Virus record (IMG/VR): IMGVR_UViG_2563366968_000002
From: a virus
Lineage: Duplodnaviria > Heunggongvirae > Uroviricota > Caudoviricetes
DNA length: 40,086 nucleotides
Strand: one strand, 5' to 3'
Shown here piece after piece: positions 39,001 through 40,086 of the stretch. Position 1 is the first letter of the stretch, and every line of letters begins with the position of its first letter. The position numbers are program-made.

Positions 39001-40086
39001 TTCCGTTTCCGTGGCGCGCTTTCCACTGCCAGCATCGATGATTTTACCCGTTATTCTAAAGATCTTGCAGATGAAGGCACCCGCTGCTTTATCGATGCTG
39101 ATAATATGCGTGCCGTCAGTGTGCTTAACCTGGGTACTATTGATGAACCAGGTCACGCAGATAACACCGCCACTCTCAAACTGAAAAAGACAGCACCGTT
39201 CTCTGCCCTGTTGTCTGTTAACGGCGAGCGTAACTCCCAGAAGTCACTGGCAGAATGGATTGAAGACTGGGCCGACTACCTTGTGGGCTTTGATGCTAAT
39301 GGTGACGCCATTCAGGCAACAAAAGCGGCTGCGGCAGTCCGTAAAATCACGATTGAAGCAAACCAGACCGCTGATTTTGAAGATAATGACTTCAGCGGCA
39401 AACGCTCCCTGATGGAATCTGTCGAAGCGAAGACCAAAGACATTATGCCAGTGGCATTTGAATTTAAATGCGTTCCGTTTGAAGGGCTGCAAGAACGTCC
39501 GTTTAAATTACGCCTCAGCATTATCACTGGCGATCGTCCTGTACTGGTTCTGCGCATTATTCAGCTGGAAGCAGTGCAGGAAGAAATGGCTAACGAATTT
39601 CGTGATCTGCTTGTTGAGAAATTCAAAGACAGCAAAGTAGAAACCTTTATTGGTACTTTTACCGCCTGATTTCCTTACTGCAAATGCCCCTGCGGGGGCA
39701 TTTATGGAAACATAATTGACTCAATAATCGCCTGATGGCGAGGGTTTTCTTTAACCAAAATTCAGCGCGGTGCAGCGCATATACGTGGAGAACAAAATGT
39801 CATTTATTAAAACTTTTTCCGGGAAGCATTTTTATTATGACAAGATAGGTGATGCTGCCAACTTACTGATTTAGTGTATGATGGTGTTTTTGAGGTGCTC
39901 CAGTGGCTTCTGTTTCTATCAGCTGTCCCTCCTGTTCAGCTACTGACGGGGTGGTGCGTAACGGCAAAAGCACCGCCGGACATCAGCGCTATCTCTGCTC
40001 TCACTGCCGTAAAACATGGCAACTGCAGTTCACTTACACCGCTTCTCAACCCGGTACGCACCAGAAAATCATTGATATGGCCATGA

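Follow-up and report, generated by a model that had tools for sequence, protein, structure and literature searches.

In the 40,086-nucleotide stretch of DNA analysed here (hereafter the window; IMG/VR record IMGVR_UViG_2563366968_000002), an IS1 copy of the IS1A/IS1B sequence type has very probably transposed into yfdR, a gene of a lambda-like prophage that is otherwise intact. The element sits between codons 17 and 18, at the AT-rich 5' end of the gene. The host of this prophage is E. coli or a close relative.

The reading frame that starts at 39797 (ATG 39797-39799) opens with 17 codons, MSFIKTFSGKHFYYDKI, which end at 39847 and are identical over 51/51 nucleotides and 17/17 amino acids to yfdR (b2361) of E. 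coli K-12 MG1655. The same 51 nucleotides are also identical to those of the intact 178-codon yfdR in NZ_CP195804, and this yfdR' remnant (39797-39847, plus strand) represents the first 17 codons of the 178-aa HD-domain protein YfdR. At 39848 the sequence changes from yfdR to the left inverted repeat (IRL) of IS1. When positions 38800-40086 were used as a megablast query against a database of 5,426 complete E. coli genomes, the alignment to the intact yfdQ-yfdR locus ended at query position 1048, which is window position 39847, in more than 2,400 genomes, and the alignments to lambdoid phages also break off at 39847. The sequence-only reading had placed the left end of IS1 at 39848, right after codon 17, and both the IRL and the point where the alignments stop confirm this placement to the base; agreement of this extent is far outside what chance would produce.

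The module upstream of the junction is well conserved. Its first gene is a yfdP homologue (38417-38779, plus strand, 120 aa) that is identical to K-12 yfdP at 359/363 nucleotides (99%) and 119/120 amino acids, and its product has 100% amino acid identity to YfdP of E. coli 582; the Pfam family PF27127 (YfdP) is on record for the same protein in relatives. It is followed by a yfdQ homologue (38845-39669, plus strand, 274 aa; Pfam DUF2303, E=9.3e-93) with 816/825 nucleotides (98.9%) identical to K-12 yfdQ, the exact protein of which occurs in 721 collection blocks. The yfdQ-yfdR intergenic region, which includes the yfdR ribosome-binding region (39670-39796, plus strand), is 127 nt long as in K-12 and matches its K-12 counterpart at 116/127 positions; within this spacer a consensus scan marked a terminator-like hairpin at 39728-39741, which is a pattern match only. 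Because the remnant is identical to K-12 yfdR at 51/51 nucleotides and lies directly downstream of yfdP and yfdQ, it is, on sequence and synteny, a true yfdR orthologue in its usual place, and the earlier assignment of the 17-codon frame to yfdR is upheld. The window shares with the CPS-53 (KpLE1) yfdR locus of K-12 the yfdP-yfdQ-yfdR synteny, the intergenic spacing and the first 51 nucleotides of yfdR.

The order of the operon is cI-like repressor, ParA, yfdP, yfdQ and yfdR, followed in relatives by xis and int. A cI-like S24 repressor gene (35461-36165) and a ParA-family gene (36400-37485) lie upstream of yfdR on the same strand, and IS1 sits in yfdR on the operon strand, downstream of yfdP and yfdQ, which bears out the earlier proposal that the early-left operon is interrupted. 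The gene for the ParA-family ATPase (361 aa) directly follows the cI-like repressor, in the place that rexAB has in lambda. After the ParA gene come a terminator-like hairpin at 37521-37540 and a 930-bp stretch (37486-38416) without an annotated gene in relatives. This stretch is where the early-left promoter and operator would be expected, together with any N-like or put-like antitermination element, and none of these was identified there.

In K-12, the yfdR of CPS-53 encodes an HD-domain 5'-deoxynucleotidase that is also a DnaA-binding protein, whereas the gene in the window is cut after codon 17 and yields no such protein. Residues 18-175 make up the conserved domain of YfdR (as aligned to PDB 2gz4); none of them is encoded in the remnant, hence the window's yfdR frame lacks the catalytic HD region (residues ~18-175, HD motif near residue 69). 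The assignment of YfdR as an HD-domain protein is based on the RefSeq annotation, on the PDB homologue 2gz4 and on PMC4776307; in Pfam the YfbR-like/HD region of intact YfdR (residues 41-104) matches just below the cut-off, and the NCBIfam comparison of intact YfdR with the YfbR equivalog likewise gives a sub-threshold match. As read from the sequence, translation from the yfdR start would run through a fusion frame (39797-39874, plus strand) composed of 17 yfdR codons and 8 IS1-encoded ones (GDAANLLI), which ends at a TAG stop at 39872-39874 and has a predicted product of 25 aa. Since this product is devoid of the whole HD-domain region, the yfdR of the window is a null allele, that is, a disrupted pseudogene and not a functional member of its family. 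An exact-protein look-up of the 34-aa ORF across the junction returned no record.

The element itself is represented by IS1 positions 1-239 (39848-40086, plus strand), which comprise the IRL, beginning with GGTGATGCTGCCAACTTACTGAT at 39848, and insA codons 1-61 (GTG at 39903), and which end with the window. A full IS1 is 768 bp long, with IRL and IRR, the insA and insB genes and a promoter that overlaps the IRL (PMC12428005), and the window shows only ~31% of it (239 of 768 bp). A complete element also has an A6C -1 frameshift site. A 65-nt IS1 probe gave a single match with 0 mismatches, against 0 expected in shuffled sequence. Thousands of E. coli chromosome and plasmid records contain copies annotated as IS1A or IS1B that agree with the window at 239/239 nucleotides, and the visible bases are without any difference from the IS1A/IS1E 'consensus' and from the IS1B/C types of K-12. 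A call of the subtype (A or B) was dropped, as copies annotated either way are 100% identical over the 239 nt. The visible part of insA (codons 1-61, 39903-40085) contains a full-length Pfam PF03811 domain (Zn_ribbon_InsA, E=8.4e-22) and the beginning of PF12759 (HTH_Tnp_IS1, E=1e-8, positions 1-19 of 46 up to the window end). The element has the orientation of yfdR, with the IRL and insA first. IS1 prefers AT-rich DNA, and in line with this preference no other 60-nt stretch around yfdR is as AT-rich as the insertion target (28% GC). The features in common with IS1 of K-12 are the IRL, the zinc-ribbon and HTH N-terminus of InsA and the AT-rich target.

IS1 ends can form hybrid promoters. A promoter-like site lies across the IS1/yfdR junction on the minus strand (39834-39861), antisense into yfdR' and yfdQ, with a -35 element TTGGCA in the IS1 IRL, a 16-nt spacer and a TG-extended -10 element CATAAT in yfdR' (10/12 matches); it is a pattern match only, and such sites in the scanned region do not exceed the shuffle expectation.

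The element that carries the insertion is a lambda-like siphovirus prophage with lambda-type head and tail genes and a Stx-phage-like late region. Its closest relative is the prophage integrated at mlrA (yehV) in E. coli 582 (NZ_CP120568), with 98.6% nucleotide identity over 24.8 kb, an unchanged gene order between the tail genes and yfdR, and most proteins 100% identical. In addition, mEp460, Lys8385Vzw and several Stx2-converting phages match the window in the early region at 95-96% identity. The 582 prophage and these named phages have an intact yfdR, unlike the window. The 582 prophage also differs from the window in having an IS21 in its late region, which is absent from the window, and in its Rha/antirepressor gene, the most divergent gene of the pair with only ~79% amino acid identity. 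The IS21 (istA/istB) of strain 582 lies between the terminase and lysis modules (locus L027, 12626-14595). The differing IS content of the two elements indicates that near-identical prophages gain different IS hits independently.

The sequence-only reading had likened the truncated gene to the yfdR of CPS-53-type prophages, but the gene content of the element as a whole does not fit that type. CPS-53 (KpLE1) is an argW-integrated, P22/SfV-like 10-kb remnant with intS and the gtr-type O-antigen modification genes (gtr-like yfdGHI), a gene set that is not present in the window, whereas the window contains a complete lambda-like element, whose genes for head, tail, lysis and replication are of the lambda-like kind. 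The overlap between the two consists of just the mosaic yfdPQR module and a yfdN-like gene.

The view that the prophage is partly decayed finds no support beyond this one insertion. The comparison drew on about 50 genes annotated in the prophage of strain 582, in translation, together with tail genes from a second relative. Apart from yfdR, every gene compared is full length and stop-free in the window, and most are 100% identical. IS1 in yfdR is the sole lesion visible in the 40 kb, and what remains of the decay claim is one apparently recent hit, with the comparator genes full length, the gpJ frame open, and the flanks and IS1 undiverged. A frameshift in the tail gene J was considered as a sign of decay and rejected, given that annotated relatives place the gpJ start at a position corresponding to ~2595, from which the frame stays open as far as the window edge. 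A 113-aa ORF (2576-2917, minus strand) flanked by the tail assembly gene I and gpJ occupies another frame than the long ORF, and it is unannotated in the two closest complete genomes. Upstream of the junction, 1048/1048 nucleotides are identical to two intact loci (H13 and H14). The IS1 insertion is apparently recent, an age that we infer because neither the flank (1048/1048 upstream) nor the IS1 copy (239/239, identical to active-type copies) has diverged.

IS1 has entered this region in other genomes as well. Base-level inspection of complete E. coli genomes covered seven further IS1 copies within the yfdP-yfdR region (strains TO6, GTEN_24, E89, 2-1, NRZ14408, ECL27977 and JBEHAAB-19-0176), and all have 8-9 bp duplications and all are at different sites (L001 4087-4854; L003 4089-4856; L028 from 2746; L029 2293-3060; L030 1501-2268; L031 2092-2859; L032 1681-2448). 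Both ends were located in six of the seven, each element being exactly 768 bp, and the right end in E89 was set by eye. These insertions involve several IS1 variants, are independent, and are all in the operon orientation; the search that found them joins same-strand hits only, and the set is biased to loci in which both flanks are recognisable. Beyond the seven inspected, further IS1 cases in yfdP-yfdR are listed (H102, H104 and H107-H109).

The nearest parallels are found in E. coli TO6 (NZ_LS992166) and GTEN_24 (NZ_CP116480), where the same kind of element also interrupts yfdR in the same orientation. These are independent events that lie 39-41 bp further into yfdR than the insertion in the window, and they involve divergent IS1 variants, with 10 and 15 mismatches in the first 239 nt and the IRL GGTAATGGTGCC, flanked by the duplications CGCGGTTTC and GGTTTCCC. 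The PGAP annotation at both loci reads partial HD-family hydrolase, IS1 transposase and partial yfdR. Because IS1 insertions in yfdR are already annotated in RefSeq in other genomes, an IS1 knockout of yfdR is already known in kind, and what the window adds is a new allele only.

The comparators also allow the unseen side of the insertion to be predicted. The event would have been a simple cut-and-paste or replicative insertion, and a simple insertion is, by comparison, the favoured course and a likely one, because all seven comparator IS1 copies are simple insertions with 8-9 bp duplications. By analogy with these 8- or 9-bp duplications, the predicted target-site duplication is the 9-bp GACAAGATA (39839-39847, no strand assigned). 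With simple transposition, GACAAGATA (or the 8-bp ACAAGATA) would be repeated beyond the right end of IS1, so that the right side should read ...GGAGTCATTACC, then GACAAGATA (or ACAAGATA), then AATAAAGACGACATCG..., with yfdR resuming at codon 18 (AATAAAGACGAC...) after the IS1 right end. Past 40086, the remaining 529 bp of IS1, the duplication and the other 161 yfdR codons would be expected. After yfdR, relatives suggest a further 4-5 kb with small early genes, xis and int; the corresponding part of the E. coli 582 prophage, on the same strand, is ~4.5 kb long and comprises small early genes, xisR and int.

This particular insertion site seems to be missing from the collections searched. The exact left junction (42 nt) had 0 matches in each of the GTDB representative genomes, IMG/VR and the JGI metagenome contigs, and the predicted right junction, with either an 8- or a 9-bp duplication allowed, also had 0 matches in each of these three. 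The predicted junction ...GTCATTACC(G)ACAAGATAAATAAAGACGAC was without a match in the collections searched. In the 5,426 complete E. coli genomes, megablast searches for both junctions led only to insertions at other sites, and every locus returned by exact look-ups of the YfdQ and ParA proteins has an intact yfdR.

A simple insertion has to be weighed against other histories of the same junction. The left junction may be real and yet have been followed by an IS1-mediated adjacent deletion or inversion, or by recombination with another IS1 copy, in which case the arm carrying yfdR, xis, int and att would have been lost and the prophage locked in. Most E. coli genomes contain several IS1 copies, with a median of 10 places per genome and up to 68, IS1-mediated deletions and rearrangements are described as well known in the introduction of PMC12428005, and the window stops within IS1 and holds nothing contradictory. 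However, 7/7 comparator IS1 copies in the region are simple insertions with intact duplications, and the rest of the prophage carries no other lesion, and we consider a later rearrangement of this kind unlikely. The IS1 end might instead belong to a larger composite transposon (Tn9-like) or to an IS1-flanked resistance region lodged in yfdR. IS1 composite transposons are known (PMC12428005), and identical IS1 ends adjoin plasmid resistance genes, for example APH(6) in NZ_AP018803. No cargo is visible within the 239 bp of the element in the window, though, composite structures were seen at none of the comparator sites in the region, and single IS1 copies are far commoner, which leaves a composite element very improbable.

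It is also conceivable that the contig end was collapsed or joined at a repeated IS1 during assembly, with yfdR uninterrupted in the organism. The window does end inside a multicopy repeat, and the exact junction is absent from all other datasets searched. The break, however, coincides precisely with base 1 of the IRL, a pattern of true transposition that differs from a chimeric join, and independent genomes carry real IS1 insertions 40 bp away, with the result that an artefact seems next to negligible.

The transposition of IS1 into yfdR would have several consequences. It would remove YfdR, which in K-12 binds DnaA and, together with YfdQ, YfdS and YfdT, inhibits initiation at oriC when yfdQRST is overexpressed (PMC4776307); its authors proposed a role that favours phage replication in the ancestral propagative phage (PMC4776307). 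Beyond yfdR itself, the insertion is probably polar on the downstream early-left genes, unless phage antitermination overrides the effect. Classical work established that IS1 insertions are polar. Early-left expression of the small early genes, xisR and int may be reduced by IS1, by analogy with the gene order in relatives, and, more speculatively, polarity on xis and int could lower the excision of a complete and possibly inducible lambdoid prophage. For annotation, yfdR is here a pseudogene interrupted by IS1, and for assembly, the window ends within a multicopy repeat and linkage beyond it is uncertain. The overall significance is small, as an accessory prophage gene has here gained another knockout allele through IS1, a routine mobile-element event.

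At least eight independent IS1 sites, the window included, fall within ~1.2 kb across E. coli genomes. The resulting IS1 density is a few-fold above a uniform expectation, a very crude figure that was derived from the median load and is uncorrected for shared ancestry or AT content. This recurrence is mildly suggestive of a hot or tolerated IS1 target. That the AT-rich yfdP-yfdQ-yfdR segment is a recurrent IS1 target under selection, beyond mere tolerance, is highly doubtful, because the excess is only few-fold and uncorrected for ancestry and AT content. If selection did act, the hits might be kept for the loss of a DnaA-binding replication inhibitor, or since a polar block of xis and int locks a complete prophage into the chromosome, and they would then represent an IS-driven first step of prophage domestication.

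Elsewhere in the element, the late region is Stx-phage-like, as judged from an AsxR match and from the close similarity to Stx2-converting phages. Stx-converting phages carry stx in the late slot downstream of Q, and in the window no stx-sized ORF is present in this slot (23326-26029). The AsxR sRNA (25440-25492, plus strand), which scores at the gathering score, lies in the late slot downstream of the Q antiterminator, and the same slot contains STnc100 (25496-25704, minus strand) and three tRNAs, Met-CAT, Arg-TCG and Arg-TCT (25780-26029, minus strand). A 653-aa SASA/NanS-p-type esterase is also encoded in the late region (slot 23326-25287). Finally, Rfam matches to the C4 antisense RNA (78.8 bits) and to isrK (58.7 bits) occur side by side at 33933-34121 on the minus strand, within the 5' part of the Rha/antirepressor ORF (33333-34481), and this pair suggests antirepressor control of the P1/P7-like c4 type or of the isrK type.
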